Source: a bacterium (GTDB taxonomy: Bacteria; Patescibacteriota; Saccharimonadia; CAILAD01; GCA-016700035). From it: a DNA stretch of 64,000 nucleotides. Both the position numbers and the translations under genes were made by a program. The stretch lies in the NCBI GenBank assembly GCA_016700035.1, contig CP064998.1:199021-263020 (forward strand), written 5' to 3'. This document shows positions 20,672 through 42,876 of this stretch, one piece after another. Numbering within the stretch: the first letter of the stretch is position 1; every line of letters starts with the position of its first letter. The notes under the pieces are model-generated. The model saw only the letters and a program-made list of their open reading frames with translations, was not told where the DNA came from and did not search any database.

Positions 20672-20713
20672 TGGTGGGCTTGGCAGGACTCAGAGCCGGA
20701 CCTCGTCATTATT
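20672..20713 (-). pseudogene. Degenerate copy of the tRNA-Ile 3' half
   Basis: tggtgggcttggcaggactc...gacctcgtcattat matches the 3' portion of the adjacent tRNA-Ile with an internal substitution block. Confidence 0.45.
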
Positions 20714-20752
20714 TGGCTGAGGCCAAGTACAGTAATGTTTTTTCTCTCAGCT

Positions 20753-20830
20753 GGTGGGCTTGGCAGGACTCGAACCTGCGACCTCGTCATTATCAGTGAC
20801 GCGCTCTAACCAGCTGAGCTACAAGCCCAC
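20753..20830 (-). tRNA. tRNA-Ile (anticodon GAT), CCA encoded
   Basis: Reverse complement folds as a cloverleaf. Anticodon loop cuGAUaa. Close match to bacterial tRNA-Ile(GAU). Confidence 0.9.
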
Positions 20831-20863
20831 AGCTGAGAGAAAAAGTTGTATAGATGCCGTGAA

Positions 20864-20895
20864 CAGTGACGCGCTCTAACTAACTTAGGCTACAA
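20864..20895 (-). pseudogene. Degenerate copy of the tRNA-Ile 5' half
   Basis: cagtgacgcgctctaac is identical to the tRNA-Ile D/anticodon-arm region, then diverges. Confidence 0.4.
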
Positions 20896-21243
20896 TTCCG
20901 GGATATAATTGTGGTGGAACATATACCTTGTAAAATTTCGACTTATGCTCGGAACGAGTCCCTGCGCGCAAGTCATGTTAGCAGATCCGAACCGAAAGGT
21001 TTAAGCCTTCATCGGTTCTGTCTGGCGGAGCATGTACTTCGTGAAACTTCGGTCTATGCTCGAAGCAAGCTTCTGCGCGTAGACCTTGTTTGCGGATAGC
21101 GGCTTACGCCTTCTCCTTGTGGTGCTCGACAAGATATACAGTAAGCTGATATCTTGGTCTGCGCTCCTCATGCGCCGAACCTTCGGCTCAATGCAGATTT
21201 TAGTCCACCACTCTGTAAGTATATATTGCATATACCCACAGAG

Positions 21244-21320
21244 TGGTGGAGCATATCGGATTCGAACCGATGACCCCCTGCTTGCAAAGCAGGTGCTCTA
21301 GCCAGCTGAGCTAATGCCCC
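21244..21320 (-). tRNA. tRNA-Ala (anticodon TGC), CCA encoded, G3:U70 present
   Basis: Reverse complement ggggcattagctcagctggctagagcacctgctttgcaagcagg...tgctccacca. Anticodon UGC. Confidence 0.9.
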
Positions 21321-21619: not shown

Positions 21620-22090
21620 ATGCATAATAATCAGCCAATACAGCCTGGATCTTTGGTGCTGCCAAAGTCTGCTTCGAACACAAACGAAGGCGGACAAGGT
21701 GGTGCTTTGCCTGTAATTACGCCGACACCTCAACTAGCAGTTATTGCATCTAATACGCCAACTGTGGATGGTCAGTCGATGGTTAAATTGAGGGGGCAAG
21801 CTGGTTTGAGTATGGATAGCACAAGTGCAGAGACTGGTGGCTTAGATTTTAGTGACACAAAGGTAGTAGATCCAGCTATACTGGCTCAGCCAGCACCAGC
21901 ACCAGCACCAGCACCAGCACCAGCACCAGCACCAGCACCAGCACCAGCACCAGCACCAGCACCAGCACCAGCACCAGCACCAGCACCAGCACCAGCACCA
22001 GCACCAGCACCAGCACCAGCACCAGCACCAGCACCAGCACCAGCACCAGCACCAGCACCAGCACCAGCACCAGCACCAGCATATAGTTAA
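21620..22090 (+). CDS. Pro-Ala dipeptide-repeat protein (hypothetical)
   Basis: ORF ending in (PA)32 encoded by a hexanucleotide microsatellite. No TM or signal. May be the 5' part of a gene split from 22146-22733. Confidence 0.45.
   Translation: MHNNQPIQPGSLVLPKSASNTNEGGQGGALPVITPTPQLAVIASNTPTVDGQSMVKLRGQAGLSMDSTSAETGGLDFSDTKVVDPAILAQPAPAPAPAPAPAPAPAPAPAPAPAPAPAPAPAPAPAPAPAPAPAPAPAPAPAPAPAPAPAPAPAYS
21890..22081 (+). repeat. (CCAGCA)32 perfect tandem hexanucleotide repeat
   Basis: Seen directly. 192 nt with no interruptions. Confidence 0.95.
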
Positions 22091-22145: not shown

Positions 22146-22733
22146 ATGGCTCCGTCGTCTACACCTATTTCACAGTCTCAAGTTAGTGTCGCATCACCAC
22201 TCTTAGTAGCTTCAGCACCTCCGTTACCGCTCGCACCGGTCCCACAGCCAGCTTTGCAGGTGGTACCACCATCGCCAATCAATTCACCACCAATGGCCAT
22301 ACCACCTACTTCACCGGTAGCCCCATCAGTACCGATACCTCAACCAAATGCTCCTGCTCCAACGACAGCTCCAAACCCTCAGCCAACCCAACCAGTCTCA
22401 TCGGCGCCGACTAGCCCAGCCCAGCCCAATTCACAAAAAGATTGGCTAGTATATGCAGCTCTCGCAATAGGTATTATCTCGATTTTGGCACAAGTTTTTG
22501 TTTCGGGTACTCCAGGATTTGCCATAATTTTGGTCGGCATTTCGTTGGTCGGTATTTTCTTGGGCTTTAAATCACTGAAGGGTGGCAAGAGGAGTATTGC
22601 AGTTGCGGTTGTGATAATTAGTGCGCTTGCTCTGGTGTCGGCGGTGGTGCAAGCTGGGATTGCTATAAATATTGCCCGAAAGTGTCAAACCGATCCAAGT
22701 TATGCCGCGCAAAGCGCACAGTGTCAGCGCTAA
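22146..22733 (+). CDS. Pro-rich membrane protein (hypothetical)
   Basis: Pro/Ala/Ser-rich N-terminal half followed by 3 predicted TM helices and a Cys-containing tail. Confidence 0.5.
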   Translation: MAPSSTPISQSQVSVASPLLVASAPPLPLAPVPQPALQVVPPSPINSPPMAIPPTSPVAPSVPIPQPNAPAPTTAPNPQPTQPVSSAPTSPAQPNSQKDWLVYAALAIGIISILAQVFVSGTPGFAIILVGISLVGIFLGFKSLKGGKRSIAVAVVIISALALVSAVVQAGIAINIARKCQTDPSYAAQSAQCQR

Positions 22734-22773: not shown

Positions 22774-24114
22774 ATGACTAAACAGATAGCTCAAGACTCA
22801 ATAATGGATGAAAAAACAACTCAGGCACCTCCAGCGATTGGGCCAGCTCTGGTTTATGCCAGCGTGGGGTTTGTTTTATTGCTTTGGGCCTTAGCTTATC
22901 CTTTAGATAGTCGCGTGCAAAATGCGGCAGCTACTTTTAAGAGTTTGGCAAATATTGCTGCTTTTTCTGGCACCGTATTATATGCTTGGTCGATATTTTT
23001 ATCATCACGGTTATTAATTTTTGATGCATGGTTTGGTGGGTTGGATAAGGCTTATAAATGGCATCATTACACTGGTGGAGTAGGGTTTTTCTTACTGACG
23101 CTACACCCGTTATTCTTAACTATGCGAGCTCTAACAACTGGCTGGCCAGTTTCTACGTTGTGGGTTTTAGGTAGTAATTGGCAGATAAATTTTGGACTTC
23201 TGCCACTGTATGCGTTAGCAATTTTTCTACCCATTAGTATATTTTTCCGGATTAAGTATGGCCTATTTATCTGGCTACACAGAATTCTGGGGGCAGTTTT
23301 CTTGCTGGGCTTTTTACATGCCTTTATGGCTAAGGGCAATATGGTGCATTTTATGCCACTCTGGATTTACATGTTTGTGGTTTCGGCTATTGCCATTGGT
23401 GCTTTTATTTACCACTCAGTATTGGGGGCAATATTGCCAATTCGCTATCGCTACAGAGTTGGTAGCGTAAAAGATATGGGTGGTGGTGTGACAGACATTG
23501 TGCTAGAGCCAGCTAGTCAGCGACTTTTACCGTTTGTGGCGGGTCAATTCGCCTACGTCAGTTTTATGTCGCATCCAGATGGTACGGAGGATCATCCGTT
23601 TTCGATGGCACGCCAGCCGAGAGCAAAAGATCTCCGGTTTGTAGTGAAAAATCTTGGTGACTACACCGCATCGATGGGGCAAATTAAGCAAGGTACTACC
23701 GCTTGGGTCGAAGGGCCACATGGAGCTTTTAACTTCCGTACAGCACGCAAATATCGTCAGGTGTGGGTGGCTGGAGGCATTGGGGTTACACCTTTTCTAG
23801 CAATGGCTGAAGCGTTGCCAAAGCGTAAATATAATGTGGATTTTTATTATTGCGTGGTAACCGCCAAGGAAGCTGCGTTTGAGTCTGAATTTAATGCTAT
23901 TGCTAGGCGTAACCCAGCTTTTAAGCCGGTGACTTTCTGCCAGGATAAGCAGGGTTTTATCGATGCCGATAAGCTAACTCGAGGAGTTGATGTGCGAGCT
24001 ACCGAGTTTTATATTTGTGGCCCACCACCAATGATGCATGCTCTGCATAAGGGGCTTTTGGCTAAGGGAGTGCCAAATCGACGCATTCACTTTGAAGATT
24101 TCTCGATGCGCTAG
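22774..24114 (+). CDS. Ferric reductase/NOX-family transmembrane oxidoreductase with FAD and NAD(P)-binding domain
   Basis: Heme-binding His-containing TM helices. FAD motif HPFSMA. NAD(P) motif GGIGVTPFLAM. C-terminal CGPPPMM. Confidence 0.75.
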   Translation: MTKQIAQDSIMDEKTTQAPPAIGPALVYASVGFVLLLWALAYPLDSRVQNAAATFKSLANIAAFSGTVLYAWSIFLSSRLLIFDAWFGGLDKAYKWHHYTGGVGFFLLTLHPLFLTMRALTTGWPVSTLWVLGSNWQINFGLLPLYALAIFLPISIFFRIKYGLFIWLHRILGAVFLLGFLHAFMAKGNMVHFMPLWIYMFVVSAIAIGAFIYHSVLGAILPIRYRYRVGSVKDMGGGVTDIVLEPASQRLLPFVAGQFAYVSFMSHPDGTEDHPFSMARQPRAKDLRFVVKNLGDYTASMGQIKQGTTAWVEGPHGAFNFRTARKYRQVWVAGGIGVTPFLAMAEALPKRKYNVDFYYCVVTAKEAAFESEFNAIARRNPAFKPVTFCQDKQGFIDADKLTRGVDVRATEFYICGPPPMMHALHKGLLAKGVPNRRIHFEDFSMR

Positions 24115-24134
24115 TTGCGCGCTATAATATAAAC

Positions 24135-24833
24135 ATGGCGCAACTCCAGCCTTATTTATATACTACTGATGGCGAAGTGGTATCTGAAAAAGCATTAATT
24201 ATTTTGCCAGAAATATATGGTGTGCAAGATTTTACTCGAGAGCTTGCACAAAAAGTCCAATCTGAGCTTAATTGGACAGGCTATGTATTAGATCATTTTT
24301 ATGCTGTAACAGGTAAAGTACAGACATTTGATTATTCTGATGCATCGGCTGGTATGGCAGTTATGCAACAAATGACTGGAGAGGCTTACTTGAGCCTACT
24401 AGACAAGGCGATAGGTGAAGTGATGGCGCGCCAGCCAGATCTGGTACGACTGGCAATCTGGGGCTTTTGCTTTGGTGGTAAACTGGCTTATCTTTCGGGA
24501 GTAAATACCAGGGTGACAGATATTATATCTTTTTATGGTGGGGCTAGTTTGGCGCCAGGCTTCTATGAAGGCCAGTCGGCAGTTGAGGCGCTTACACAAA
24601 GGCGGATGGGAGATAAGAACCTACGTATCTTAGCGGCTTTTGGTAAAAATGATGAAATGATACCGGCATCGGACGTAGAAAGTATTCGCAGTCAATTAGA
24701 GCGAGCCAAGATAACTCGCGAGGTGAATACTTATCCGGCTGGCCATGCCTTTTTTAATGAAGACCGCAAGGATCGCTATGTACAGGCAGCATCAGATCAA
24801 GCTTGGCAGGATGTTTGTAGCTTTTTGATATGA
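24135..24833 (+). CDS. Dienelactone hydrolase family protein
   Basis: LIILPEIYGV motif. Nucleophile elbow GFCFGG. Alpha/beta hydrolase length. Confidence 0.65.
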   Translation: MAQLQPYLYTTDGEVVSEKALIILPEIYGVQDFTRELAQKVQSELNWTGYVLDHFYAVTGKVQTFDYSDASAGMAVMQQMTGEAYLSLLDKAIGEVMARQPDLVRLAIWGFCFGGKLAYLSGVNTRVTDIISFYGGASLAPGFYEGQSAVEALTQRRMGDKNLRILAAFGKNDEMIPASDVESIRSQLERAKITREVNTYPAGHAFFNEDRKDRYVQAASDQAWQDVCSFLI

Positions 24834-24837
24834 AAGT

Positions 24838-25539
24838 CTATTTGCCAAAACGGCGTTGGCGATGAGAGTATTCAGTTAAGGCAGAGTCTAGATCAGCTTC
24901 GGTAAAATCTGGCCATTTTTTATCGATAAACATAAGTTCGGCATAGGCGGATCGCCAAAGCATAAAGCCAGATATGCGTTGCTCACCAGAGCTACGAATG
25001 AGTAAATCTAGCTCGGGTACATCGGGTGCATAGAGGTATTGAGCAAAAGCTTCTGGTGTAATCGTATTAGCCGCAATGCCAGACGAGATAAGTTTTTTTG
25101 TGGCATCAACTATCTCTTGCTGACCACTATAATTTAAACACAGGGCTAATGTGCCATTGGTATTGTTAGCCGTTTTTTCTTCTGCGTTACGCATAGCGGT
25201 GATGATTTTCGGATCAAGCCCTTCATCATTACCCAGAAAAACTACCCGAACACCTTCACTGTGAATATCTTCAAGCTCATGGTCGGCCACCCATAGCAGA
25301 AGCTTCATAATATAGCTAACTTCTTCGGCTGATCGTTGCCAATTCTCTTTACTCCACACGTAGGCTGAGACATATTTAACGCCACGATCTAGCGCCGCTA
25401 GTCCAATTTTTTTAAAATTCTTATAGCCTTGACGGTGGCCTTCTAGTAGTGGAATACCTTGTTCTTTGGCCCAGCGCCGATGACCATCGAGAATAAAGCC
25501 GACGTGTTGCGGGATTTGATTTTGTGAGATATTTGTCAT
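24838..25539 (-). CDS. uppS: Isoprenyl transferase (undecaprenyl diphosphate synthase)
   Basis: HVGFILDGHRRWAKE (cis-IPPS substrate-binding motif). Conserved C-terminal RRFGK. Confidence 0.85.
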   Translation of the reverse strand: MTNISQNQIPQHVGFILDGHRRWAKEQGIPLLEGHRQGYKNFKKIGLAALDRGVKYVSAYVWSKENWQRSAEEVSYIMKLLLWVADHELEDIHSEGVRVVFLGNDEGLDPKIITAMRNAEEKTANNTNGTLALCLNYSGQQEIVDATKKLISSGIAANTITPEAFAQYLYAPDVPELDLLIRSSGEQRISGFMLWRSAYAELMFIDKKWPDFTEADLDSALTEYSHRQRRFGK

Positions 25540-25660
25540 AATTTAAGTATCCATTATAGCTTATTTCAGGTAAGAATAAAGCTAAAGAAAAGATATGGAC
25601 AAATATATGCAAGGGAGTCTATTATTAAGCATAAGTATTAATTGAGATAATATAGTAATT

Positions 25661-27463
25661 ATGCCAACTAAAAAAAAGAGCACAAAAATGAAAGTAAAAC
25701 CTAAGTCTACATCTAAAGTAGCCAAAAGTAGAAGCGCCCAAGGTGTTTTGTCGTCTAATAAGTTTAATGTTGTAATCGCCGGTATTGCCCTATTGCTAAT
25801 TGCTGTGGTGGGTATTTTTGTTTATTTTGCATCGAGGGCCGGGACCTCAACTTATCAATATAATGCAACTACTGGAGTACATACTGGGCGCTTATTTTCT
25901 GACGATAGTCCTCTTAACCAGACTATTCCTGGTGATGTTCGCTATGCGGCTGATGGCCAGACTCGTATTCAAACTGCAGGAGTTCCCGCAGCATTCTCCT
26001 TGCTGACTTGGTCGATACCGATTTTTCAAGCCGATGCCACTACGCCTAAGGCTAATATTTGGTGTTATCAGACGGATATTCAAGCTCCATGGGATACTTG
26101 TCATGGGATAAATACTAGTCCTCAGCCAGTGCCACAGGGTATGTTTGCTCAGAAGGGTGGCGATGGGCATGTGACAGTTATTGATACTTCGACTAGAAAA
26201 ATATACAGCTACTGGATATGGAAGGATTGCACTCTGCAGTTTAGTCTCAATAATGCTAAATGGTGCCCAGCTACTGGCAATATGGCGTCAATTGACGGTA
26301 ATGGCGTAGGAGGTGGTACAAATGTAGCTGGGTTAGCTGGCGGAATAATCCGAACACACGAGATTGAACGAGGGAATATTGACCACGCACTGACTTTCTC
26401 TACTAGTACGACTTGTAAGCGAGACCCTATCTATCCAGCCCTCTATAGTGATGGCACAAACGCCAATCAGGCAACATGTATGCCGATTGGCGCTCGGTTT
26501 CAGCTTGATCCCAGTATTAATGTAGATACTCTGCCAAATATTACCCCAATGGAAAAAACTATTGCTAAAGCACTGCAAAAATATGGAGCCTATGTAGACG
26601 ATACCGGTGGAATATTTGGCTTTGTCATTGAGCTTGATCGAACAGGTAGGAAAGTTTATCAGAAAGCTGGTGCTCCAGACCATGATTATTTCCCTATGAA
26701 AGCCATACCTTGGGATAAGTTTAAGATGCTTGAACCACAGTGGAATAAAGATGGCTCCAAAGCTTATGCCTGGACAGGGCCACAAATTACCACCCCCTCC
26801 CCAACTCCACCCACCACCACCGTTACCCCTAGCCCCACACCAACTCCTGGTAATAAAGCACCAGTAGGTCCAGCTAGTCTCTCTGCTTCAGTCATCTCTA
26901 GCACACAAATCAATCTGACTTGGCCAGTAGCCACCGACGATAGTACAGGGACCCTCAACTACACCGTGACTCGTAATGACAAACAAATCTACTCTGGCCC
27001 TAAGCTATCCTTCTCCGACACCGGCCTAACTCCAGCTACTAAATATAACTATAAAGTTACAGCTAAGGATGTAGGTGGTCTTGTATCCACTGGTGCAACT
27101 ACCTCTGCTACCACCCAAGCATCCCCCACCACTCCACCCCCGCCAACCACCGACACCACCAAACCTTCAGTACCCGGTAATGTTAAAAGTAAGATAGAGT
27201 TCGATGGTCTAAAGTTTGCTTATTACACTAATCTAACTTGGACTGCATCTTACGATAACGTAGGTGTAACAAGCTATGAAGTAAGACGTAATAACACAAG
27301 TCTTGGCACTACTACCACTACTAACTTCAAAGACTACAATCTCCAACCCAATATCCTCTACAGCTACGACATCTATGCTAAAGATGCAGCTACTAACTCA
27401 TCTCTACCAGCTAACACCAAGCTCACTGGTCGTTGCTTCATCATCTGGTGTTGGGGGGAGTAG
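25661..27463 (+). CDS. Signal-anchored surface protein A: unknown ~330-aa domain plus two FN3-like modules and CFIIWCWGE tail
   Basis: Lys-rich N-terminus with a TM helix. Cys-containing central domain of unknown function. Thr/Pro linkers. FN3-like modules identical to those of the gene at 33936. Confidence 0.65.
   Translation: MPTKKKSTKMKVKPKSTSKVAKSRSAQGVLSSNKFNVVIAGIALLLIAVVGIFVYFASRAGTSTYQYNATTGVHTGRLFSDDSPLNQTIPGDVRYAADGQTRIQTAGVPAAFSLLTWSIPIFQADATTPKANIWCYQTDIQAPWDTCHGINTSPQPVPQGMFAQKGGDGHVTVIDTSTRKIYSYWIWKDCTLQFSLNNAKWCPATGNMASIDGNGVGGGTNVAGLAGGIIRTHEIERGNIDHALTFSTSTTCKRDPIYPALYSDGTNANQATCMPIGARFQLDPSINVDTLPNITPMEKTIAKALQKYGAYVDDTGGIFGFVIELDRTGRKVYQKAGAPDHDYFPMKAIPWDKFKMLEPQWNKDGSKAYAWTGPQITTPSPTPPTTTVTPSPTPTPGNKAPVGPASLSASVISSTQINLTWPVATDDSTGTLNYTVTRNDKQIYSGPKLSFSDTGLTPATKYNYKVTAKDVGGLVSTGATTSATTQASPTTPPPPTTDTTKPSVPGNVKSKIEFDGLKFAYYTNLTWTASYDNVGVTSYEVRRNNTSLGTTTTTNFKDYNLQPNILYSYDIYAKDAATNSSLPANTKLTGRCFIIWCWGE
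26790..27463 (+). repeat. Copy 1 of ~675-bp FN3-cassette repeat (apparently identical to 35011-35685)
   Basis: No differences found on visual alignment except one extra A in the other copy. Confidence 0.85.
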
Positions 27464-27513
27464 TAACCGCTAGGTTTACCTTTAACACCCTAAATTCTCG
27501 ATAGTAAAAGGTA

Positions 27514-27543
27514 TTGACCCATAACGCATGGGCATGATACGCT
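27514..27543 (+). promoter_or_regulatory. Candidate 23S promoter (-35 TTGACC)
   Basis: TTGACC about 280 nt upstream of the 23S 5' end. The -10 is poor. A related TTGACC-N18-TAAAAT lies downstream of the paralogous copy at ~35737. Confidence 0.25.
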
Positions 27544-27798
27544 ATTGAGGCACTAAAGCGAGGACAGCCACACGTGAGTAGACAACAAAACCTAGGAGAA
27601 ACCACCGGTTAATCAGAGTTTGTTGGAATTTCACGCGTGGTTGTCTCCGGTAGATACCACGCTTTTTTGTATCGAACGTTCACAACTTCATACTTACGAG
27701 AAAAAAGGGTAACAAATATTGCTTTCTTTCTTAGGGATGATTAGACAAAGCTTGTAAGAGGTGTGTCAATCACTCTCTTATAAAAAAGAGAAGAAAAA

Positions 27799-30985
<3,187 letters not shown>

Positions 30986-31174
30986 TTCGTGGTTTACTTG
31001 ATCATTTTTTGTGATTAGGTAAACCGATTTTTGACAAGATGAGTGCTTGGCACGCTTTTTACAAGCTAAAAATCTCTAAGAAATCTTTAAAGAAAGCAAA
31101 GTGCCTTTAATCGTAAGTATGAATGACTTCCATTGTGAGCGTCGGTCTTTCGGGCTTTAGAGCTTGAGAGACCG

Positions 31175-31283
31175 GTGCTTATGGCGGAGGGGCCACACCT
31201 GTTCCCATACCGAACACAGCAGTTAAGCCCTCCTGCGGCGATGATACTGGTAACCCCGGGAAAGTAGCGCAGTGCCGGATTGG
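31175..31283 (+). rRNA. rrf: 5S ribosomal RNA
   Basis: GCTTATGGCGGAGGGGCCACACCTGTTCCCATACCGAACACAG...GGGAAAGTAGCGCAGTGCC. Confidence 0.85.
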
Positions 31284-31290
31284 AATTATT

Positions 31291-31324
31291 AAAAGCCGCC
31301 TATTTTTATAAATGGGTGGCTTTT
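31291..31324 (+). terminator. Putative rrn terminator hairpin followed by a T-run
   Basis: GCCGCC...GGTGGC stem with one G-U, then TTTT. Confidence 0.35.
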
Positions 31325-31384
31325 GTTGACACATACAATCATTAGGGTTTATGCTTAATATATACTTAATAAAGAGATGTTCTC

Positions 31385-33856
31385 ATGTCTGTTCAAAAAA
31401 AGAAAATAACACCAAAAAATAAACCTAAAACCAGAGTCAAGAAAACCGCTTCCAGCAATTCAATAAAGTATACTTATAAATTTAGCAATCCCATAGTCCT
31501 TGGAGTAGTTGCGATATTGATTGTTGTGTCGGCAGTATATCTGTATATTACCTATGCTGGATCGGCACGTTATGAGGCTTTGCAGCCGATTAAGAAAAGT
31601 ACAACAGCTGGTGCAGTCTTGCCGATTATCTACAATGCAACATCCCTAACTGGTACGGTGCGTTATGCTTCTCCATCCGGTTCTAATACTTCAGCCTGCA
31701 TAGCTAGTGACCCATGCACGTTGGCACGTGCGGTGAGCCAGGTAAGTACTGCTAATAGTACGATTATCCTAGCTGGCGGTACGTATCGCAATCAAGCCAA
31801 TATTACTATTAGTGGTAGTGGGCGCAATGGTTTGAAACTTATAGCTGCATCCGGCCAAATACCAGAAATTCGTGGCTCAGTGGAGGTGAATGGTGGCTGG
31901 AATACAGAGGCTGGCTACAAATATATTTCATATACCCCTCGAGCGATTGAGGAAGGTATGGGGGTAGCATTTGATGATGAGAAAAATATGATGAACCTCA
32001 ATAGTAGTGAAGGTCGATATGCCGACCAGGTTTGGATAGGCAATAAGGCACTTAAGCAGATTCTAGATAAGTCGGCTTTGAAGGATGGTCAATTCTATGT
32101 TGATAGGGCTAATCGTCGACTCTACCTTACTGCTAATGATGCATCAAAATCATCAATTGAAACCTCACGACCCGGTGATGGAACGACTAATCCACGTGAT
32201 CGTTTATTCTCAATTTCTTCCACAGGCGTCACCCTAGAAGGGATTCGTATGAATCGCTATTCTGCCAATGGCGATGATTATGGTGTAGTTTTAGTTAATG
32301 ATGGTGCGCATAATTTTACTATGAAGAACTCAGAACTATCCGACGCACCGTATGAAGGTGTGCATGTTGGTCAGGTGGATAATCCAACTTTTAAGAATGT
32401 TACTATACACGATGTAGCTTGGACATCAATAGGGGTTAATCAATCGGATAAGTTGCTATTAGATCAAGTTAAAATAACCAATACAGATCCATTTGATGAG
32501 TTTTCTAGCTCACCGGTTAGTGGTGCATTGAAAACGAGTCGAACACGTGATTCTAAAGTTATTCAGAGTTATATTGGTGGCAATAAGTCGCATGGCTTAT
32601 GGTTTGATCAAAGCAATATTAATGTGGTAGTTGATAAGAACTTTATGAAGGATAATACTGGCGCAAGTGTTTTCTTTGAGATTTCAGATGGACTTACAAT
32701 GACAAATAATTTTGTAGCCACCACAAATGGTCAGCCCATCAAGATGGCTGGGTCATCTGGTTTGCGTTTGGTTAATAATACATTGGTTGGAGGTCATGAC
32801 CCAGTTGGAGTATATATGGATAACCGTTCGACACCGGGTTGTGCATCTAATATTAACTTATGTAAATCATCTTCCTACGCCAGCGATCGTCAAGGTCGGT
32901 TTGCACCATATATTGGCTCTACGATGGACTGGATGCCTAGAATTGATGTGATGGTGAATAATATTATTGCGTATCCAAGTAGTCTGTCTAGCATGTGCGG
33001 CAAAACAGCCACGGTTGGAGTTTGTATTACTACTAGCTGGGGGTCCGGTGCCCAACTTGCTACTACAACGCTTGATGCTATTATTCATAAAGCGGATACC
33101 ACACGTAATATTCCTCAGACTATCATTAGCGGTAATGTGTATGCTAATGGTACTTCTCGAATTATTCGAGCTGGTTCGCAGGATTATACGAGTGCGTCTA
33201 CATGGAGCTCAGCACTTGCTGGTCCTCCGGTTAATATTACTGGATTAGATGCAAATGCTAAGGTGGGCAATAGCTGGGTAAATACCGATGGTACGGGAAC
33301 CGATAGCTTGATCAATGCTAGCGCTCAGGCCTATAAGATACCAGTATTTACTGGCTCAAATGCTATTATTAACACCTACATACCAGCCGGTACGCAGCAG
33401 TATGGAGTACTGAGTAGTGCGGTGAATCCATCTACAACTGTATCGCCTACAACTACTCCTCCATCATCTACTCCAACACCGACAACCACTACTACGGTGA
33501 AGCCATCACCTACCACGCCGGTAACTCCACCCCCGCCAACCACCGACACCACCAAACCTTCAGTACCCGGTAATGTTAAAAGTAAGATAGAGTTCGATGG
33601 TCTAAAGTTTGCTTATTACACTAATCTAACTTGGACTGCATCTTACGATAACGTAGGTGTAACAAGCTATGAAGTAAGACGCAATAACACAAGTATTGGT
33701 ACTTCTACTACCACTAACTTCAAAGACTACAATCTCCAACCCAATATTCTCTATAGCTATGACATCTACGCTAAAGATGCAGCTACCAACTCATCTCTAC
33801 CAGCTAACACCAAGCTCACTGGTCGTTGCTTCATCATCTGGTGTTGGGGGGAGTAG
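31385..33856 (+). CDS. Signal-anchored surface protein B: right-handed beta-helix (pectate-lyase-like) domain plus FN3 module and CFIIWCWGE tail
   Basis: Lys-rich N-terminus with a TM helix. Repeated N/G/T-rich beta-helix turns (NVTIHDVAWTSIGVNQSDKLLLDQVKITNT). C-terminal ~110 aa about 97% identical at nt level to the other copies. Confidence 0.6.
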   Translation: MSVQKKKITPKNKPKTRVKKTASSNSIKYTYKFSNPIVLGVVAILIVVSAVYLYITYAGSARYEALQPIKKSTTAGAVLPIIYNATSLTGTVRYASPSGSNTSACIASDPCTLARAVSQVSTANSTIILAGGTYRNQANITISGSGRNGLKLIAASGQIPEIRGSVEVNGGWNTEAGYKYISYTPRAIEEGMGVAFDDEKNMMNLNSSEGRYADQVWIGNKALKQILDKSALKDGQFYVDRANRRLYLTANDASKSSIETSRPGDGTTNPRDRLFSISSTGVTLEGIRMNRYSANGDDYGVVLVNDGAHNFTMKNSELSDAPYEGVHVGQVDNPTFKNVTIHDVAWTSIGVNQSDKLLLDQVKITNTDPFDEFSSSPVSGALKTSRTRDSKVIQSYIGGNKSHGLWFDQSNINVVVDKNFMKDNTGASVFFEISDGLTMTNNFVATTNGQPIKMAGSSGLRLVNNTLVGGHDPVGVYMDNRSTPGCASNINLCKSSSYASDRQGRFAPYIGSTMDWMPRIDVMVNNIIAYPSSLSSMCGKTATVGVCITTSWGSGAQLATTTLDAIIHKADTTRNIPQTIISGNVYANGTSRIIRAGSQDYTSASTWSSALAGPPVNITGLDANAKVGNSWVNTDGTGTDSLINASAQAYKIPVFTGSNAIINTYIPAGTQQYGVLSSAVNPSTTVSPTTTPPSSTPTPTTTTTVKPSPTTPVTPPPPTTDTTKPSVPGNVKSKIEFDGLKFAYYTNLTWTASYDNVGVTSYEVRRNNTSIGTSTTTNFKDYNLQPNILYSYDIYAKDAATNSSLPANTKLTGRCFIIWCWGE
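33524..33856 (+). repeat. Copy 2 (diverged, ~10 substitutions) of the terminal FN3 cassette
   Basis: Aligns to 27131-27463 with mostly synonymous changes. Confidence 0.8.
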
Positions 33857-33935
33857 AGGATTTGACGAATCTTAATAAAACCCTTAAGCTTAAACTAACT
33901 CACAAGTATTAATACAAAAAGGATCATTAAATACC

Positions 33936-35685
33936 ATGTCGGCTACTAAGAAACGAAATCAATCTAAGTCTAGAGGATCTAGCGCTAAGACCGCTAAGAC
34001 TTCGAGTAGAGTATCTACAGTAAAGAATATTAATCTAGGTATTTTGGCAATTGTGGCGGGTGCGGTAATTTTAATTGGTGGCCTTTATGCACTGCTGGCT
34101 TGGGCGGCAACACCTGGTGTTGGTAGTTATCCGGCAATTGCTACTATTCCGCGTCTTGCCCCTTACACTAGTTTTTGGTGGCAGTTGGAAAACGCTCCAA
34201 AAGTTGATGCACTAGTTACCGAAGCTAACCCTAAAAAACATTATGATTTTGACTACGAAGATGTAACTAGCGCACAAATCGCAACCATGAAGTCTCAGAA
34301 TGCATTGGTAACTTGCTACTTTGAAGTTGGGACAGCGGCTCAGTGGCGCCCAGATTATAATAAATTTCCAGCCTCAGCAGTTTCAGCAACTGACCCACAG
34401 AACTGGGGTGATGAGCGCTGGATAGATATTATGAATCCAACAGTACGAAGTATTATGGCGGGGCGGATGGATGTTTCAAAAGAGAAAGGCTGTCAAGGGA
34501 TAGAGCCAGATTGGCTAGACAACTATACCTACAGCCAAGCTGAGTATGATGCTTCTGGAAAAGTGAAAGTACCGACTAAAGCACAACAATTAGATTATAT
34601 GAAGTTTTTGGCTGATGAAGCTCATAAGCGAGGCATGATGATTGCCTTAAAGAATGTACCGGAGCTAGCTCGTGAGAAATTTGCTGACGGACGAGTGGTA
34701 GCGGACGTGTATGACTGGGCATTAATTGAAGAGTGTCTCGTTTCTTATAAGGATACTTGCCCAAACCTGAAGGCCTTTATTGAGCGTGGTAAGAATGTGG
34801 CGGTTGCAGAATACAATGATCAGGTAGCACAGGCTAAATTTACTGATACTTTCTGCCCTCAGTTCAATACCTGGAATTTTGATGGATATCTGTTTGATCG
34901 CAAGAATGGTGGTAGTCCAACCTTGACCGGAAAATTTCGTGTACCATGTCGTACTGGAGAGGGGCAGCCCATAGGACCCACCCCAACGGTAACTGTATTC
35001 CCGGGCACCTCCACCCCCTCCCCAACTCCACCCACCACCACCGTTACCCCTAGCCCCACACCAACTCCTGGTAATAAAGCACCAGTAGGTCCAGCTAGTC
35101 TCTCTGCTTCAGTCATCTCTAGCACACAAATCAATCTGACTTGGCCAGTAGCCACCGACGATAGTACAGGGACCCTCAACTACACCGTGACTCGTAATGA
35201 CAAACAAATCTACTCTGGCCCTAAGCTATCCTTCTCCGACACCGGCCTAACTCCAGCTACTAAATATAACTATAAAGTTACAGCTAAGGATGTAGGTGGT
35301 CTTGTATCCACTGGTGCAACTACCTCTGCTACCACCCAAGCATCCCCCACCACTCCACCCCCGCCAACCACCGACACCACCAAACCTTCAGTACCCGGTA
35401 ATGTTAAAAAGTAAGATAGAGTTCGATGGTCTAAAGTTTGCTTATTACACTAATCTAACTTGGACTGCATCTTACGATAACGTAGGTGTAACAAGCTATG
35501 AAGTAAGACGTAATAACACAAGTCTTGGCACTACTACCACTACTAACTTCAAAGACTACAATCTCCAACCCAATATCCTCTACAGCTACGACATCTATGC
35601 TAAAGATGCAGCTACTAACTCATCTCTACCAGCTAACACCAAGCTCACTGGTCGTTGCTTCATCATCTGGTGTTGGGGGGAGTAG
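33936..35685 (+). pseudogene. Signal-anchored surface protein C with GH114-like TIM-barrel domain, disrupted by +1 frameshift in an A-run
   Basis: N-terminal K-rich anchor. FWWQL...GCQGIEPDWLDNY resembles the glycoside hydrolase family 114 fold. A5 at 35406-35410 against A4 in the two paralogs shifts the frame. The ORF continues as 35296-35685. Confidence 0.6.
35011..35685 (+). repeat. Copy 3 of the ~675-bp FN3-cassette repeat
   Basis: Identical to 26790-27463 apart from one extra A. Confidence 0.85.
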
Positions 35686-35892
35686 AGCAGTACTTAGACT
35701 TATCTTGATACTCTGAACTCTTGATAGGAAAAAGTATTGACCTATAGTGGTTTATTGTACTTAAAATATTTGAGCATTTTACCCGAGGCACGGTTAAGGG
35801 TTACTGGCCGGCTTCAGTTTTGTGGATAAAATTGATTTTTTTTTTGCACCATGAGAAGATAAACACAAGGGTAATTAAAAGGAATACTAAAA

Positions 35893-36726
35893 ATGTCAGA
35901 GGTAGGTCGATGGACACCGGAGGATAGTCAGGCACTAAATAGTGAAAGCTACGCCGCAAGAAAACCGGCTCAGGATAAATGGGATGAGTTGAATAAGTCA
36001 GCTGTGAGTGAGGGGGTGGCTACTGAGCTGCCATATGTTGTAGATGGAGGTAGGGAAATATCTTATACGGAAGCCTTAAATGAAATTCAACGTCGACAGG
36101 ACACTGTAAATGAATACACCGAACTAGAACAGGCTAGCTTAGCTCGTGGTGAAGGGGAGTCATCCATATTGCCACACCTAAAATACAAGCTTAAAGCCAT
36201 TCAAGAGCCTCTGGAGCGAGCACGCAGTTGGGCGTCACGTCTTCAGGAGGCGCGAGCTCGTGGAGTGGAAATTCCGGAAAAATTTTCTACCGCCGAGCAG
36301 ATTATGTATCATGAATCTAAATTGGAAGAGTATAAGAAGCAGAGAGACAATGTTGCGCTTTGTATACTGGAATTTCGTGGAGCCGACGAAAATCAAGACG
36401 CGAGAGCCGTACATAGCGCCCTCGCGCATTTGCCGGAAGTGAATGAGATGGGTGGCATTGACTGGGAAGGACTGAAGCACTGGGTAACCCATCTTCAGAG
36501 GCATGGTAGGCCGGAAGGAGATCAAGCACAAGCAGTACTTGATAAGGCTTATCCAGGTGGTGAGCTCTACAATGCCCGCATTGAGTACTATCGTGATTTG
36601 GTAGAAATTAATGAGATTTTGCAGCCGGTGCGTGAGAGGATAATCGCACGCTATGAAGAGGAACTACGTGACTTTATTGAAAAAACTAGTGATCTGCCAG
36701 ATGGAGCTCAGGAAATTACTACATAG
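35893..36726 (+). CDS. Hypothetical acidic protein
   Basis: 277-aa ORF with RBS-like AAAAGGAATA upstream. No recognised motifs. Confidence 0.4.
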   Translation: MSEVGRWTPEDSQALNSESYAARKPAQDKWDELNKSAVSEGVATELPYVVDGGREISYTEALNEIQRRQDTVNEYTELEQASLARGEGESSILPHLKYKLKAIQEPLERARSWASRLQEARARGVEIPEKFSTAEQIMYHESKLEEYKKQRDNVALCILEFRGADENQDARAVHSALAHLPEVNEMGGIDWEGLKHWVTHLQRHGRPEGDQAQAVLDKAYPGGELYNARIEYYRDLVEINEILQPVRERIIARYEEELRDFIEKTSDLPDGAQEITT

Positions 36727-36918
36727 GTTGCGTATTGGCACTGAGGTATGTATTGGTCGTCAAAAAGCATTGAGGCCTAGTAATATTAGTCGAGCTATAG
36801 TCAGTGTGCCAGCATCTTTTTAAGAATGCGCTTAGATCAGCTTGACTGACCTGCTATTGTTCTACTGTCTGGCGCTATAGAAAGCAAGGGATTTGACGAA
36901 AAACTTTGAGTCAAAGCA

Positions 36919-36947
36919 TTGACAGAATAAGCATAAGCTGATAGAAT
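36919..36947 (+). promoter_or_regulatory. Near-consensus sigma70 promoter TTGACA-N17-TAGAAT
   Basis: Seen directly. Would yield a ~140-nt structured leader before the ATG at 37092. Confidence 0.45.
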
Positions 36948-37091
36948 ACAGAGCATTACCACTTCGGTAGTCACTTCAAAGTGTTTGAGGGTCTACCGGA
37001 GTGGTTTTAGAAAAAGAGTATTAGTGCTGACTGTGGAGGGTCAGCTCGAGCGCTAGCTACTCACTTGAAAGTAATTATCAAGGAGAACGCT

Positions 37092-37283
37092 ATGCCAGGA
37101 ACAGTTGCTGGTGGCCGTAAGGCTGCTGATACTAACCGCAAGCGCTACGGTAAGACGTTTTACGTCCGTATCGGTGCACTCGGTGGTAAGAAAAGCACAG
37201 GTGGTGGTTTTGCCGCTAACCCAGAACTTGCTCGTGAAGCAGGTCGTAAGGGTGGGCAGGCTCGTAAGAAAAAGCAGGCTTAG
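37092..37283 (+). CDS. KGG-repeat stress-induced protein (general stress protein-like)
   Basis: GGKKSTGGGFAAN...GRKGGQARKKK repeats. Strong RBS AAGGAG 8 nt upstream. The listed ORF start at 37065 is less likely. Confidence 0.6.
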   Translation: MPGTVAGGRKAADTNRKRYGKTFYVRIGALGGKKSTGGGFAANPELAREAGRKGGQARKKKQA

Positions 37284-37311
37284 AGCTTACTAACTTAGGA
37301 GTATAACCTCA

Positions 37312-37353
37312 CAACACAATAGTCCCCGTATTTTTTACGGGGACTATTGTGTT
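37312..37353. terminator. Bidirectional terminator between convergent genes (17-bp perfect stem, TTTTT loop)
   Basis: ACACAATAGTCCCCGTAtttttTACGGGGACTATTGTGT. Confidence 0.65.
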
Positions 37354-37831
37354 AATCGGTGAGTTTTATGTGGCGAATGCGTGGCTCAGTACCTTCTGCG
37401 ATGTGCCAGCGAGTTTGGCAGACAAAACAGCGATAAGTAGATTTATCTTCTTGGAGAGAAAAATTTGTACAGGCAGGGCAAGTACTGCGCTCTTCCACCC
37501 AGTGTCCGTAGCTGGCCAGACAACTCTGAATAAAATGATCAGAACAAGCAATATTATAGTGATGAGCTAAGTTGCGGGTTTTCATCCAAGCCTGAGATTC
37601 CATAGCGAATAGTTCAAAGTCGGTACGAAAATCAAAGTGGGCTAGTTCAGCATGAGAAATTTCATGTAATAGGCTGATGATACCTCGATTGGTATCCAGG
37701 CAAGTTGAGTCAAAATATATACATTCACTAGCAGAATCAAAATAGAAGTCACTATCTTCTATAAAATGATACGATGAGAAATCCTGCATAATTTGCTGGC
37801 TGACCGTATGTAGCTTCACCCCCATAGGCAT
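37352..37831 (-). CDS. SprT-like zinc metallopeptidase family protein
   Basis: HEISH (HExxH) motif. C-terminal Cys-rich zinc ribbon (CPAC...CFVCQ). ~160 aa. Confidence 0.45.
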   Translation of the reverse strand: MPMGVKLHTVSQQIMQDFSSYHFIEDSDFYFDSASECIYFDSTCLDTNRGIISLLHEISHAELAHFDFRTDFELFAMESQAWMKTRNLAHHYNIACSDHFIQSCLASYGHWVEERSTCPACTNFSLQEDKSTYRCFVCQTRWHIAEGTEPRIRHIKLTD

Positions 37832-37844
37832 ATCATAGCATTTT

Positions 37845-38696
37845 TTAGTGTTGGTGGATGGCGTGAGCTAGTAGACCAGCTCCGATGAGGGGAGCGGTTT
37901 CAATATGTTTGGCGGGCTTAATTGGTGGAAGTGGGAATTTTGGAGAATAGGCTAATTCTGCGAGATGTTTAGTGAGTGGGGGTAAAAACTTTTTATGATG
38001 TTTAGAAACTCCACCACCCAATACGACAATTTCAGGATTTGTGGCAACAATAAGGTTATGTAGGCCTTGGGCTAGTGGTCGGGTGATTTCATGCCAGGCT
38101 TTCTTAGATCTAATATCGGCTGCAATTTTGCCATATTCTCGCACAATAGCCTTGCCACTAGCTAGGTACTCAAAACTACCGTAGAGAGGGTTGCGAACGT
38201 GATCAACGAGGATCATTTGGCCACCTTGAGGGTTATATGGTCCGGGGAGTGGCTTACCATCTAGGATGAGCGCTGAGCCGATGCCAGTAGAAATGGTCAC
38301 GTAGAGAATATAGCGATATTTCTGTCCGCTACCTATCATGGCTTCGCAAACACCTCCCAATGTAGCATCATTTTCAAGTATGATTGGGGTATTAAATTCT
38401 TGGTGTAATTTGGCTACAATGGGGAGTTTTTTCCAGGTTGGGATGTGGGTACAGGGTCCGATAGTGCCGTGTTTGCGATCAACTTTTGCCGGGGCGGCAA
38501 TACCAATTGCTAGTGGTTCAGCCGGGCCAGTAAGAGTCTGGATGGTAGAAATTGTCTGTTTTATCATAGCGGTTTCACTGGCAGGAGTAGGAAAATCTAT
38601 AAACTGAGAAATTTTTCCATAGCCATTAATGCAACCGATGCGTACTTTTGTACCACCAATATCGATTGCGATAACTTCTTTTTTCATGCGTTCCAT
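37845..38696 (-). CDS. ROK-family sugar kinase (glucokinase-like)
   Basis: N-terminal ATP-binding motif IAIDIGGTKVRIG. ROK-like Gly-rich core. Confidence 0.75.
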   Translation of the reverse strand: MERMKKEVIAIDIGGTKVRIGCINGYGKISQFIDFPTPASETAMIKQTISTIQTLTGPAEPLAIGIAAPAKVDRKHGTIGPCTHIPTWKKLPIVAKLHQEFNTPIILENDATLGGVCEAMIGSGQKYRYILYVTISTGIGSALILDGKPLPGPYNPQGGQMILVDHVRNPLYGSFEYLASGKAIVREYGKIAADIRSKKAWHEITRPLAQGLHNLIVATNPEIVVLGGGVSKHHKKFLPPLTKHLAELAYSPKFPLPPIKPAKHIETAPLIGAGLLAHAIHQH

Positions 38697-38801
38697 AACT
38701 CCATCATACCGAGTGTAGTTAGTTTGAGCAAAACTGCTTAAGCTTGCACTTCTCAGTTATCAGTTTTAAAATCTATCTTTATAGAAGTATATAAGGGCTT
38801 A

Positions 38802-39230
38802 TTGCTCGATGAGGTTATTAAAGGCGTGTTACTCAAAAACTCAGTCGTAAAAATTATTTTAGCTGTAGCGGTGATTATTTTAATTGTCGCGGCTACTTTT
38901 GCTTATGGTAATTCACAGAGGCAAGCGCAGGAGCGGGGCAAGACAGAGCAGGAACAGCAGGCCGCCAGCTCCGAATCAACTAGCCCCACCCCTTCAGCTA
39001 GCTCGACAACCCCAACTCCTAGCACTACTCCTGCTAGCCCAGCTCCATCGGCTTCAACTAAGCCTGGCAGTCCAGCTCCATCCACAACTGCTCAGGTTGC
39101 CCCACCAAACGGCAAAACTCCTGCTACTGGGCCAGGTTATTTACTGGTCTTACCTGCAATAGTCTTAGGAATTCTAGTATACGCTCATCGCCTGAGCTTG
39201 CGTAAGCTTACCGATACACTAAAATTTTAG
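38802..39230 (+). CDS. Small Ser/Thr/Pro-rich membrane or surface protein with possible sortase-like signal (TPATG)
   Basis: N-terminal TM helix. STP-rich linker. C-terminal TPATG followed by a hydrophobic helix and HRLSLRK tail. Confidence 0.4.
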   Translation: MLDEVIKGVLLKNSVVKIILAVAVIILIVAATFAYGNSQRQAQERGKTEQEQQAASSESTSPTPSASSTTPTPSTTPASPAPSASTKPGSPAPSTTAQVAPPNGKTPATGPGYLLVLPAIVLGILVYAHRLSLRKLTDTLKF

Positions 39231-39414
39231 TTAGACTTTACTTTTATCAGGTATAGCGGTATAATCTAACCTGATTTGCGATTGACTTCGTACTTGTTTA
39301 GTTGCAGATTTTTAACCCAAATCTAGATGTGGTGTTAAAAAATCTGTTATTTTTTAAGCTTAGCGTAGTCAAATGCGGACATCTCTCCATAAGAAAGGTA
39401 GGAATAGTAATAAT

Positions 39415-40500
39415 ATGACAAAAACACTCTCAATGGATCAGCTAATGGCTGAAGTAGAGGTTAAGGCCCCAGGTGTTGGGGATATTTTGGAAGGTACAGT
39501 ACTGAGCGTAGAAAAGCACGAAATATGGCTTGATCTTGGTGCATCGGGGACTGGTGTGGTGTTGGGTCGAGAGACTGAGTCGGCAGTACGAGCGCTCCAG
39601 CCTGGCGATACAATTTCAGCCTCTGTTTTGGATCCGGAAACAGATGAAGGTTATGTTGTGCTCAGTTTACGCAAGGTAGCAAAAGAAAAAGGTTGGGAAA
39701 CTCTAGAAGAGCGCATTAAGAGTGGTGAGACTTTTGGAGTTGTGCCATTTGATGCGAATCGGGGCGGTATGTTGATTGAGGTTGATGGAATCCGCGGATT
39801 TTTACCAGTTAGTCAGCTATCGGCAGAAAATTATCCACGAGTTTCTGGTGCTGATAAAGATGAAATTTTACAACGGCTTAATCATTTAGTTGGGCAAACC
39901 CTTATGGTGCGCGTCTTAGATCTTGACCGGAAGCAGAATAAGTTGATTGTGTCAGAAAAGGCTGCTCGTCGTGAAATGACTGAAGGTAAACTAGCTGATA
40001 TTGAAGTGAATAGTGAAGTTGATGGTATTGTAACTGGTATTGTGGATTTTGGCGTTTTTGTAAATGTTGATGGCGTGGAAGGTATGGTGCATATTTCTGA
40101 AATTGCCTGGGATCGAGTGGATAACCCAAGCAAATATGTGAAGGTTGGTGAGACTGTAAAGGCAAAGGTGATCGCAATTGATCAAGACAAGCTTTCGCTT
40201 TCTATGAAGCAACTCAGTGCCGATCCGTGGATTGAAGAGAGCAGTCGTTTCTCGGTTGGCGAGTCGGTAGATGGTACGATTAATCGCATTACCCCGTTTG
40301 GTGCTTTTGTCCAAATTACTCCTGTCATTGAGGCTTTGGTGCATATCTCAGAGCTTTCGGAAGATCATGTTGCTGACCCAAATGACCTAGTGAAGGTTGG
40401 CGAAAAGAAAACATTCCGTGTGATTGCAATTGATCCAGCTCAGCATAAGTTATCACTTTCTTTGAAGCCAGCTAAGGCCGACAAAAAGCAGGAGGATTAA
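39415..40500 (+). CDS. rpsA: 30S ribosomal protein S1 (short, 4 S1 domains)
   Basis: Repeated S1 OB-fold motifs. Start chosen at the ATG after the purine-rich RBS. The ORF could begin at 39373. Confidence 0.8.
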   Translation: MTKTLSMDQLMAEVEVKAPGVGDILEGTVLSVEKHEIWLDLGASGTGVVLGRETESAVRALQPGDTISASVLDPETDEGYVVLSLRKVAKEKGWETLEERIKSGETFGVVPFDANRGGMLIEVDGIRGFLPVSQLSAENYPRVSGADKDEILQRLNHLVGQTLMVRVLDLDRKQNKLIVSEKAARREMTEGKLADIEVNSEVDGIVTGIVDFGVFVNVDGVEGMVHISEIAWDRVDNPSKYVKVGETVKAKVIAIDQDKLSLSMKQLSADPWIEESSRFSVGESVDGTINRITPFGAFVQITPVIEALVHISELSEDHVADPNDLVKVGEKKTFRVIAIDPAQHKLSLSLKPAKADKKQED

Positions 40501-40505
40501 GCGAC

Positions 40506-40757
40506 ATGGGGCGACCCAAAGGCAACACATTACCCGAGCGAACGTGTCGGATGTGTCGAGGGCGTTTCCCAAAGAATCAATTAGAGCGCTGGGTGTTGCG
40601 TGGGTCGGAGCTGGTGCTTGACTTAAAACAGATAGAGTCAGGGCGAGGATGGTATAGTTGTAAGAAGCCAGCTTGTTCGAGAAAAATGCACGAAGTTGGT
40701 GCTCGGGTGGCTTTATCACGCCGCCACCGCAAACCCAAACAGGAGAAAACTACATGA
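40506..40757 (+). CDS. ylxR: YlxR/RnpM-family RNA-binding protein (DUF448)
   Basis: RTCRMCRGR...GRGWYSC motif. Located directly upstream of infB. Confidence 0.75.
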   Translation: MGRPKGNTLPERTCRMCRGRFPKNQLERWVLRGSELVLDLKQIESGRGWYSCKKPACSRKMHEVGARVALSRRHRKPKQEKTT

Positions 40758-42523: not shown

Positions 42524-42525
42524 GG

Positions 42526-42839: not shown

Positions 42840-42876
42840 GTTTGACGACTTGGTGAGGGAGGACTAAGATAGGCAT

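Follow-up and report, generated by a model that had tools for sequence, protein, structure and literature searches.

A C-terminal module shared by unrelated exported enzyme genes brackets the 23S-5S rRNA genes of a Saccharibacteria genome and probably evolves in concert

Concerted evolution of shared modules is well known in families of surface proteins, and gene conversion between copies is familiar from the pneumococcal choline-binding proteins, the opa genes of Neisseria, msp2 of Anaplasma, and the tuf and rRNA gene pairs. Saccharibacteria usually carry one rRNA copy. Here we describe a 64,000-nt stretch of contig CP064998.1 (assembly GCA_016700035.1, Saccharimonadia; hereafter the window) in which near-identical direct repeats lie on either side of the genes for 23S and 5S rRNA. 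The repeated sequence is not a mobile element; it is a 3' coding module common to three otherwise unrelated exported enzyme genes, termed A, B and C. Concerted evolution by gene conversion very probably keeps its copies alike, and it is just as probably the same homology that allows the loss, gain and movement of gene units around the rRNA genes. The mechanism itself is a real but ordinary case of concerted evolution; what is new is the lineage-specific module with its apparently undescribed C-x4-C-W tail, the attachment of this module to unrelated glycan-degrading enzymes, and its bracketing of what are probably the sole 23S-5S genes. Loci from other assemblies are referred to as L001, L002 and so on; the two used most, L019 (~94-98% identical to the window) and L017 (701 kb), are Joint Genome Institute (JGI) contigs. 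Exact look-ups of proteins A and B in a contig index gave no hit; the close relatives L017-L019 were reached through two cluster members.

The shared 3' module and its concerted evolution

The two long copies of the module terminate genes A and C. By self-BLAST and by direct string comparison, the 674 nt of the first equal the 675 nt of the second once a single A is dropped from a run of five. The ends of this perfect identity are sharp: on the left it begins inside the stretch coding for a Pro/Thr linker, the preceding bases being ATTA versus ACCT, and on the right it finishes exactly with the G of the TAG stop codon, beyond which some 60 nt are only ~70% alike. The BLAST alignment takes in this post-stop stretch, and for that reason gives 97.3% over 738 nt. 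Gene B ends in a shorter copy of 333 nt, which aligns without gaps to 27131-27463 of copy A and differs from it at 11 sites (96.7% identity), nine of the changes being synonymous and two nonsynonymous. The long copies stand 8221 bp apart, start to start, and enclose the only 23S and 5S genes within the window.

The module encodes two Pro/Thr linkers, each followed by a domain (FN3 after the first, FN3-like after the second), and then the C-terminal tail GRCFIIWCWGE. Genes A, B and C all end in LTGRCFIIWCWGE, and all open with a basic leader rich in Lys, Arg and Ser, followed by a hydrophobic helix. The bodies of A and C have no similarity. That of C is a GH114 glycoside hydrolase (PF03537, 172.5 bits against a gathering cut-off of 27); that of A finds no Pfam match, and its catalytic domain is hydrolase-like but of no known family. 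In the AlphaFold2 (AF2) model of protein A (mean predicted local distance difference test score, pLDDT, of 83), a transmembrane-type helix (residues 37-57) precedes a compact domain (60-370, pLDDT >90) and two beta-sandwiches, the second modelled at pLDDT ~95; the tail has a pLDDT of ~51 and so lies outside the domain fold. Foldseek matched the C-terminal half of the model best to tandem FN3 structures (E ~1e-9), and a search of the PDB with full-length A returned nothing beyond such tandems. Against PF00041 the whole of A scores 36.6 bits (cut-off 25), with residues 404-474, the first domain, as the best stretch; the second FN3-type domain falls under the cut-off, at 17-23 bits. Residues 1-397 of protein A (window 25661-26851) are 100% identical to NCBI entry QQS27151.1, encoded on a 916,044-bp contig of a metagenome-assembled genome (MAG).

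A first-pass annotation, made from the window sequence before this analysis, had recognized much of this anatomy: two long direct repeats identical but for one A; 23S-5S genes bracketed by them and visible nowhere else in the window, as Rfam placement agrees; a third copy of the last ~330 bp, ~97% identical with mostly synonymous changes; and surface-protein genes that close with an FN3 cassette and a tail, a description that the Pfam matches, the model of A and the N-terminal leader and helix of tail-bearing open reading frames (ORFs) bear out. Its statement that each repeat ends a different surface-protein gene at the stop codon holds for copies A and B, but copy C is out of frame. The extra A that it recorded is indeed present; the consequence had been missed. 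The additional base throws the module of gene C out of frame, such that the ORF (33936-35414) runs into a TAA immediately behind the A run, and deleting one A restores an ORF of 582 aa. The orthologues of gene C are intact, at 582 aa in L001 and 584 aa in both L002 and L019. Across ~20 kb aligned to relatives, the extra A is the only coding indel not divisible by three, save for a 1-nt gap with which one of the compared segments opens (window 22080, where a hexanucleotide repeat ends); the consensus is thus generally clean. Short-read polishing of a long-read assembly nonetheless breaks down at exact repeats, and gene C is about as likely to be a real, recent pseudogene as to carry a residual homopolymer error. 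Programmed +1 frameshifting or phase variation at this site was judged unlikely, the run being only 5 nt long and A4 in all other copies and orthologues; a programmed +1 shift on A-AAA-AAG-TAA is formally possible, with nothing in its support. In L019, too, the frame of the beta-helix gene that follows the 5S gene (17564-20024 of that locus) does not continue into its module; it is lost in the Pro/Thr-linker stretch just upstream of the final FN3-like domain. Module borders may thus be struck by frameshifts repeatedly, whether these are true scars of recombination or sequencing errors related to the repeats.

How the copies evolve is seen by comparison with relatives. Gene A with its module is present in both L017 and L019, and gene C with its module in L019 as well. 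Over the 675-nt module, copies A and C are 100% identical in the window and 99.1% identical in L019 (100% over the last 333 nt), and any window copy is 95.9% identical to any L019 copy: in each genome the paralogous copies resemble one another more closely than either resembles its orthologue. When the A and C modules of the window and of L019 were compared site by site, 24 variable sites grouped the four sequences by genome, none grouped them by orthology and none cross-wise. The pattern is the one that gene conversion working separately in the two lineages would leave.

The distribution of differences in copy B points the same way. All 11 fall within 106 nt (27289-27394 of copy A), with identity for 158 nt before and 69 nt after, a clustering with a permutation P of 7e-5; on this pattern copy B is best read as a mosaic of conversion tracts, and the A/C identity is bounded as abruptly, by the stop codon and the linker-body border. 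In L002 the last 333 nt are identical in two non-adjacent genes. The module upstream of C in L001 is ~75-76% identical to the C-type module, as against 96-97% between the B and C modules of the window. Orthologues of C carry the module in L001, L002 and L019, where it has diverged about as far as the C body has, and for that reason gene C was probably the donor.

The variable gene array around the 23S-5S genes

The module genes of the window occupy a region with conserved borders, uppS on the left and genes of 159 and 283 aa on the right, between which gene content varies among relatives (Table 1). uppS precedes an array of module genes in L004, L007, L017, L019 and L020; the L017 orthologue of the 283-aa gene carries a precomputed Pfam annotation, ROK. 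Module genes on both sides of 23S-5S are common in the clade. Gene C is found either directly upstream of 23S (L019 and L002) or beside the right border (window and L001). Relative to L017, window 31325-35793, which contains B and C, is an insertion after the 5S terminator. A scan of metagenomes with the body of gene B recovered relatives at 74% and 48% only and no true orthologue, so the junction between 5S and B is without independent support.

Table 1. Features of the variable region (window coordinates) and order of gene units in the window and in relatives
Feature	Coordinates	Strand	Description
uppS (undecaprenyl-diphosphate synthase)	24838..25539	-	Left border of the variable region; Pfam Prenyltransf, 246.9 bits
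Gene A, 600 aa	25661..27463	+	Leader/helix, unassigned catalytic-type domain (aa ~60-370), Pro/Thr linker, FN3, Pro/Thr linker, FN3-like domain, tail
Long repeat copy 1	26790..27463	+	3' module of gene A; identical to 35011-35685 except for one A
Post-stop element d1, then 23S leader	27464..27793	+	d1 is the first ~60 nt and has GTATTGACC; d1 also upstream of 23S in L017
23S rRNA gene	27794..30987	+	3194 nt, with expansion segments; Rfam LSU_rRNA_bacteria, 2683.5 bits
5S rRNA gene	31171..31280	+	Rfam 5S_rRNA, 81.6 bits
Gene B, 823 aa	31385..33856	+	Leader, right-handed beta-helix, Pro/Thr linker, one FN3-like domain, tail; Pfam Beta_helix 60.9 bits, NosD 30.1 bits
Short repeat copy (333 nt)	33524..33856	+	Last FN3-like domain and tail of gene B; 11 sites unlike copy A
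B-C intergenic spacer	33857..33935	+	TTGACG a few bases past the stop; same spacer between A and C in L019
Gene C	33936..35685	+	GH114 glycoside hydrolase with two-domain module, +1 frameshift; Pfam Glyco_hydro_114
Long repeat copy 2	35011..35685	+	3' module of gene C; 675 nt by self-BLAST and string comparison
A5 run	35406..35410	+	A4 in the other copies and all relatives; sole difference between the long copies
Post-stop element d2	35686..35750	+	TTGATA...GTATTGACC; follows gene C
ORF277	35893..36726	+	No Pfam match; directly 3' of the 5S gene in L017
Genes of 159 and 283 aa	37352..38696	-	Right border of the variable region; syntenic in L001, L003, L005, L006, L009, L017 and L019
Order, window			uppS - A - 23S-5S - B - C - ORF277
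Order, L019			uppS - A - C - 23S-5S - B' (B' 73% identical to B, out of frame before the module)
Order, L017			uppS - A - g2 - 23S-5S - ORF270
Order, L002			Three further tail-bearing genes (775+, 621 and B-like 920 aa) and a 430-aa tail-less gene - C - 23S-5S - three unrelated ORFs
Order, L004, L007, L020			uppS - B-like gene (two more in L007) - 23S
Order, L006			5S - two module genes - right border
Order, L001			Module gene - C - right border

The sequences that follow the stop codons differ in type from one unit to another. In L019 and L002 the ~62-nt element d2 after gene C leads on to the 23S leader, in the window and L016 to the upstream region of ORF277; similarity between the loci stops just past GTATTGACCyATAG. 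This junction lies outside the repeat and thus is not explicable by an assembler mis-resolving the repeat; judged from these alignments, the rearrangements at clade level are real. The first-pass annotation had seen here a TTGACC promoter-like element shared by both downstream regions. The conserved element of ~60 nt is real, but its reading as a promoter is unsupported above chance in consensus scans, which found no promoter in 27464-27793 and, at 35721-35748, a 10/12 match not above chance; promoter and terminator scans of the post-stop elements in general gave nothing above chance. TTGAC recurs from a few to ~25 nt past the stop of many module genes in the window and in L001-L019 (e.g. TAG AGGATTTGACG) and may serve as the -35 box for the next gene of the unit.

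The 16S gene (16344-17864) lies 10 kb upstream of the 23S gene, separated from it by at least seven protein-coding ORFs. Unlinking of 16S from 23S-5S has been described in TM7x and other genomes of the Candidate Phyla Radiation (CPR) (PMC12424978, PMC8172020). The usual tRNAs of a 16S-23S spacer, tRNA-Ile(GAT) and tRNA-Ala(TGC), are on the minus strand at 20752-21320, 2.9 kb after 16S, and the 16344-21320 region has an insertion of ~2.3 kb in the window relative to L019, with a protein having a 'choice-of-anchor Q' domain at 18716-20227. The 23S gene has 3194 nt where the model has 2925 positions; near model positions 282 and 312 domain I is enlarged by expansion segments, ~28 nt and ~130 nt long, and the stretch 29707-29841 is unlike L002.

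Two further observations concern other genes of the window. A perfect hexanucleotide repeat, CACCAG x32 (Ala-Pro coding, 21890-22081), ends in a stop, dividing the region into ORFs 21620-22090 and 22146-22733. In L019 the counterpart is a single gene of 408 aa with ~112 nt more repeat, and on that account we read the window gene as split, by a change in repeat length or by collapse of the repeat in assembly. The phenylalanyl-tRNA synthetase beta subunit (941 aa, 237-3062) contains an NlpC/P60 peptidoglycan-peptidase domain at residues ~444-521, placed after B3_4 and before the matched C-terminal part of B5.

Recombination through the module, and its alternatives

The module copies supply near-perfect homology of 333-674 nt in direct orientation. 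Non-reciprocal exchange between them, that is, gene conversion, would homogenise them, with tracts limited on the left by the start of the unrelated enzyme bodies and on the right by the stop codon, beyond which the flanks diverge. Reciprocal exchange, or excision of a unit and its re-integration at another module copy, would alter the number and order of units. Whole units, each consisting of spacer, gene and module, could be lost, gained or moved through module homology in this way, which would explain why related genomes differ in the genes, and in their order, to either side of 23S-5S. Were copies A and C to cross over, 8,221 bp would be lost, comprising 23S, 5S, gene B and the body of gene C, and unequal exchange would duplicate the same segment. 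Because a single rRNA copy is usual in these bacteria, and that of the window is probably the only one in the genome, the A-C deletion should be lethal; the survivors would be only conversions and non-lethal rearrangements.

Two propositions of the first-pass annotation bear on this scheme. One was that recombination could excise or amplify an ~8.2-kb segment carrying 23S-5S, which follows from the geometry of the repeats and fits the unit orders of relatives; no deletion or duplication was observed. The other, that such perfect identity implies recent duplication or ongoing conversion, can now be narrowed to conversion, given that A and C of relatives already carry the module and that 24 of 24 sites sort by genome.

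Several points weigh against recombination within the module as a full account. The breakpoint on the right, ~62 nt beyond the stop codon, falls outside the repeat, so that a simple crossover within the repeat leaves some junctions unexplained. An A module followed directly by d1 and 23S is seen in the window only; in L017 and L019 it is trailed by the spacer type that trails B in the window. The choice of gene C as donor is drawn from divergence levels only. Perfect identity could stem partly from consensus polishing across copies, and the order of repeat-bounded units is just the sort of thing that misassembly could alter; the other path open here is A - C - 23S-5S - B - ORF277. That the window arose from an L017-like order, through a crossover within the module's last 60 nt, was considered and set aside: the second gene of L017 is exact over the last ~21 nt only, with 10 mismatches in 60.

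The last doubts, taken to their limit, amount to an artefact of assembly or polishing: a false duplicate copy, copies made identical by multi-mapped reads, or a unit order resolved wrongly, the true one being that of L019 (A - C - 23S-5S - B). In relatives, contigs of short-read MAGs do break at the module or at rRNA genes—L016 begins 55 nt before the module stop, and L004 and L007 end inside 23S—and the hazard of short-read misassembly to which the first-pass annotation drew attention is thus well founded. The spacer type behind the A module in L019 and L017 makes another path conceivable, and the lone difference between the long copies, a homopolymer indel, is typical of residual long-read error. 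We nevertheless consider an artefact unlikely. Each long copy is bordered by unique sequence to its left and right; orthologues of A and C with the module occur in independent assemblies, one of which, L019, has a like near-identity of the two modules; and the coding-region indel rate is otherwise nil. Copy B has its 11 private differences only 69-175 nt away from the 3' flank of that copy, close enough for ordinary reads to link the two. The contig that encodes QQS27151.1, at 916 kb about a whole Saccharibacteria genome, implies that the repeats were spanned. Finally, L001 also puts C beside the right-border genes, and as its neighbouring modules are only ~76% alike its assembly is unambiguous. 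It is because of the 916-kb contig, the placement of the copy B differences, the position of C in L001 and the modules of independent assemblies that misassembly of the window order is unlikely. The practical lesson stands all the same: exact repeats of 674 and 333 nt bracketing the rRNA genes of Saccharibacteria break short-read assemblies and permit alternative unit orders, and gene order around them is not trustworthy without spanning reads, which is of relevance to assembly and annotation in this group.

A single, very recent duplication or domain transfer, in which the module of gene C was copied once onto gene A with no ongoing conversion, would account for perfect identity over 674 nt with sharp borders, and for the joining of like modules to an A body unlike the C body. 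We rate it as very unlikely. The two-domain module is already present on the A orthologues of L017 (92% identity) and L019 (96%); with the C orthologues also carrying it, both genes had the module before these lineages split, which excludes a single recent event. The A/C pairs were homogenised independently in the window and in L019 (24:0 sites), copy B is a mosaic of identical and diverged stretches, and L002 has been homogenised between other genes too.

It is scarcely credible that the repeats are termini of a mobile element, or site-specific recombination sites akin to integron cassettes carrying rRNA or enzyme genes: module-bounded units do vary in order and number among relatives, and the short conserved TTGAC sequence often lies past the stop codon, but the repeats are direct, lie wholly within coding sequence and are under constraint at the amino-acid level, no inverted repeats were found in 24000-38000, the neighbouring ORFs (uppS, dienelactone hydrolase, ferric reductase and the unmatched ORF277) have no transposase, integrase or recombinase domain, and the post-stop elements differ from unit to unit.

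Concerted evolution by conversion, acting through the module, therefore remains the reading we prefer. It presents an ultra-small episymbiont with variable exported glycan-degrading enzymes built on one C-terminal module, the set of which would be remodelled by homologous recombination even though a crossover of the outer copies would remove the probably sole 23S-5S genes.

The module family and comparison with known systems

We scanned 185,579 species, one genome each, with patterns derived from the last domain and the tail. The scan returned 16 loci, all in Saccharibacteria/Patescibacteria MAGs except L016. This last (positions 1-7966 of CAZPZW010000028.1) is labelled Thermoanaerobaculia; it is 93% identical to window 35631-43598 and begins inside a module copy, from which we take it to be probably a misbinned Saccharibacteria contig. 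Several MAGs hold two or three module loci, and the 20-kb locus L002 alone has four tail-bearing genes. The module is thus specific to Candidatus Saccharibacteria, with several genes per genome, often in arrays beside 23S-5S.

The tail, ~10 residues long, closes with either an acidic residue or CW. Its core is C-x4-C-W, and more distant homologues of gene A end exactly in ...C-F-L-F-x-C-W. In 31 tail-bearing ORFs the residues R-C-F-L/I-I-W-C-W-x-E are kept while synonymous codon positions vary; the constraint therefore acts on the protein. No Pfam or NCBIfam model covers the tail, even at E <= 10, the motif string was not found in the searchable literature, and literature searches pairing Saccharibacteria with 'gene conversion' or 'sorting signal' gave nothing relevant. 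The conserved tail motif appears to be undescribed.

At the other end of the proteins, 24 of the 26 complete tail-bearing ORFs from the window and L001-L019 have the leader and hydrophobic helix. The shared N-terminus is unusual, consisting of a Lys/Arg/Ser-rich segment of 30-40 residues, often starting MPAxKK, then the helix, then an A-x-A-like motif (SQA|GT, SRA|GT, AWA|AT); in the window it is encoded by 25661-25840, 31385-31560 and 33936-34110. An N-terminus of this kind suggests that the family has its own signal anchor or long signal peptide.

The FN3-like domain and the G-R-C-F-L-I-W-C-W-x-E tail might together form a new, Saccharibacteria-specific signal for anchoring or sorting exported polysaccharide-degrading enzymes, or for binding the host surface, and the arrays around a single 23S-5S a recombination hot spot; we hold this proposal as possible though doubtful, and a sorting function of the tail is offered as a hypothesis only. 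If it were true, the module would act as portable homology through which the enzymes that the epibiont displays toward its host are shuffled, replaced and homogenised. The tail motif and the catalytic domain of gene A are in any case candidates for studying how Saccharibacteria attach to or attack their hosts.

Among described systems, C-terminal sorting domains—the C-terminal domain (CTD) of type IX secretion (T9SS), LPXTG, PEP-CTERM and the logic of 'choice-of-anchor' domains—resemble the module in placing a lineage-restricted extreme C-terminus on diverse exported enzymes, after a beta-sandwich. They differ in that the tail has neither a transmembrane helix with a basic cluster nor an LPXTG or PEP motif, and matches no curated model of NCBIfam. 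The proteins are also built like modular FN3 glycoside hydrolases, with the catalytic domain first, then Pro/Thr linkers and FN3 domains, and their FN3 region matches that of the exoglucanase CbhB model (NF041611; E = 4e-28 for gene A). Unlike CbhB, they reach only 98 bits against a cut-off of 1950, the match being confined to the FN3 part, and they have the C-x4-C-W tail in place of a carbohydrate-binding module.

As in other CPR bacteria and Saccharibacteria, 16S is split from 23S-5S by ~10 kb of protein genes; unlike other unlinked CPR rRNA loci, this one has tRNA-Ile and tRNA-Ala on the opposite strand and 23S-5S inside a variable array of module genes. There is also a close likeness to conversion between paralogues of surface-protein genes, with which the locus shares copies closer within a genome than between orthologues, mosaic tracts, sharp ends of identity, and exported or surface-located products. 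Nothing here points to an expression site, unlike in systems of antigenic variation. The locus departs from paralogue conversion too in that what is converted is a C-terminal module carried by unrelated catalytic domains, rather than whole-gene paralogues or silent donor cassettes, and in that its copies bracket the probably sole 23S-5S genes, which would make the reciprocal outcome of the same exchange lethal.

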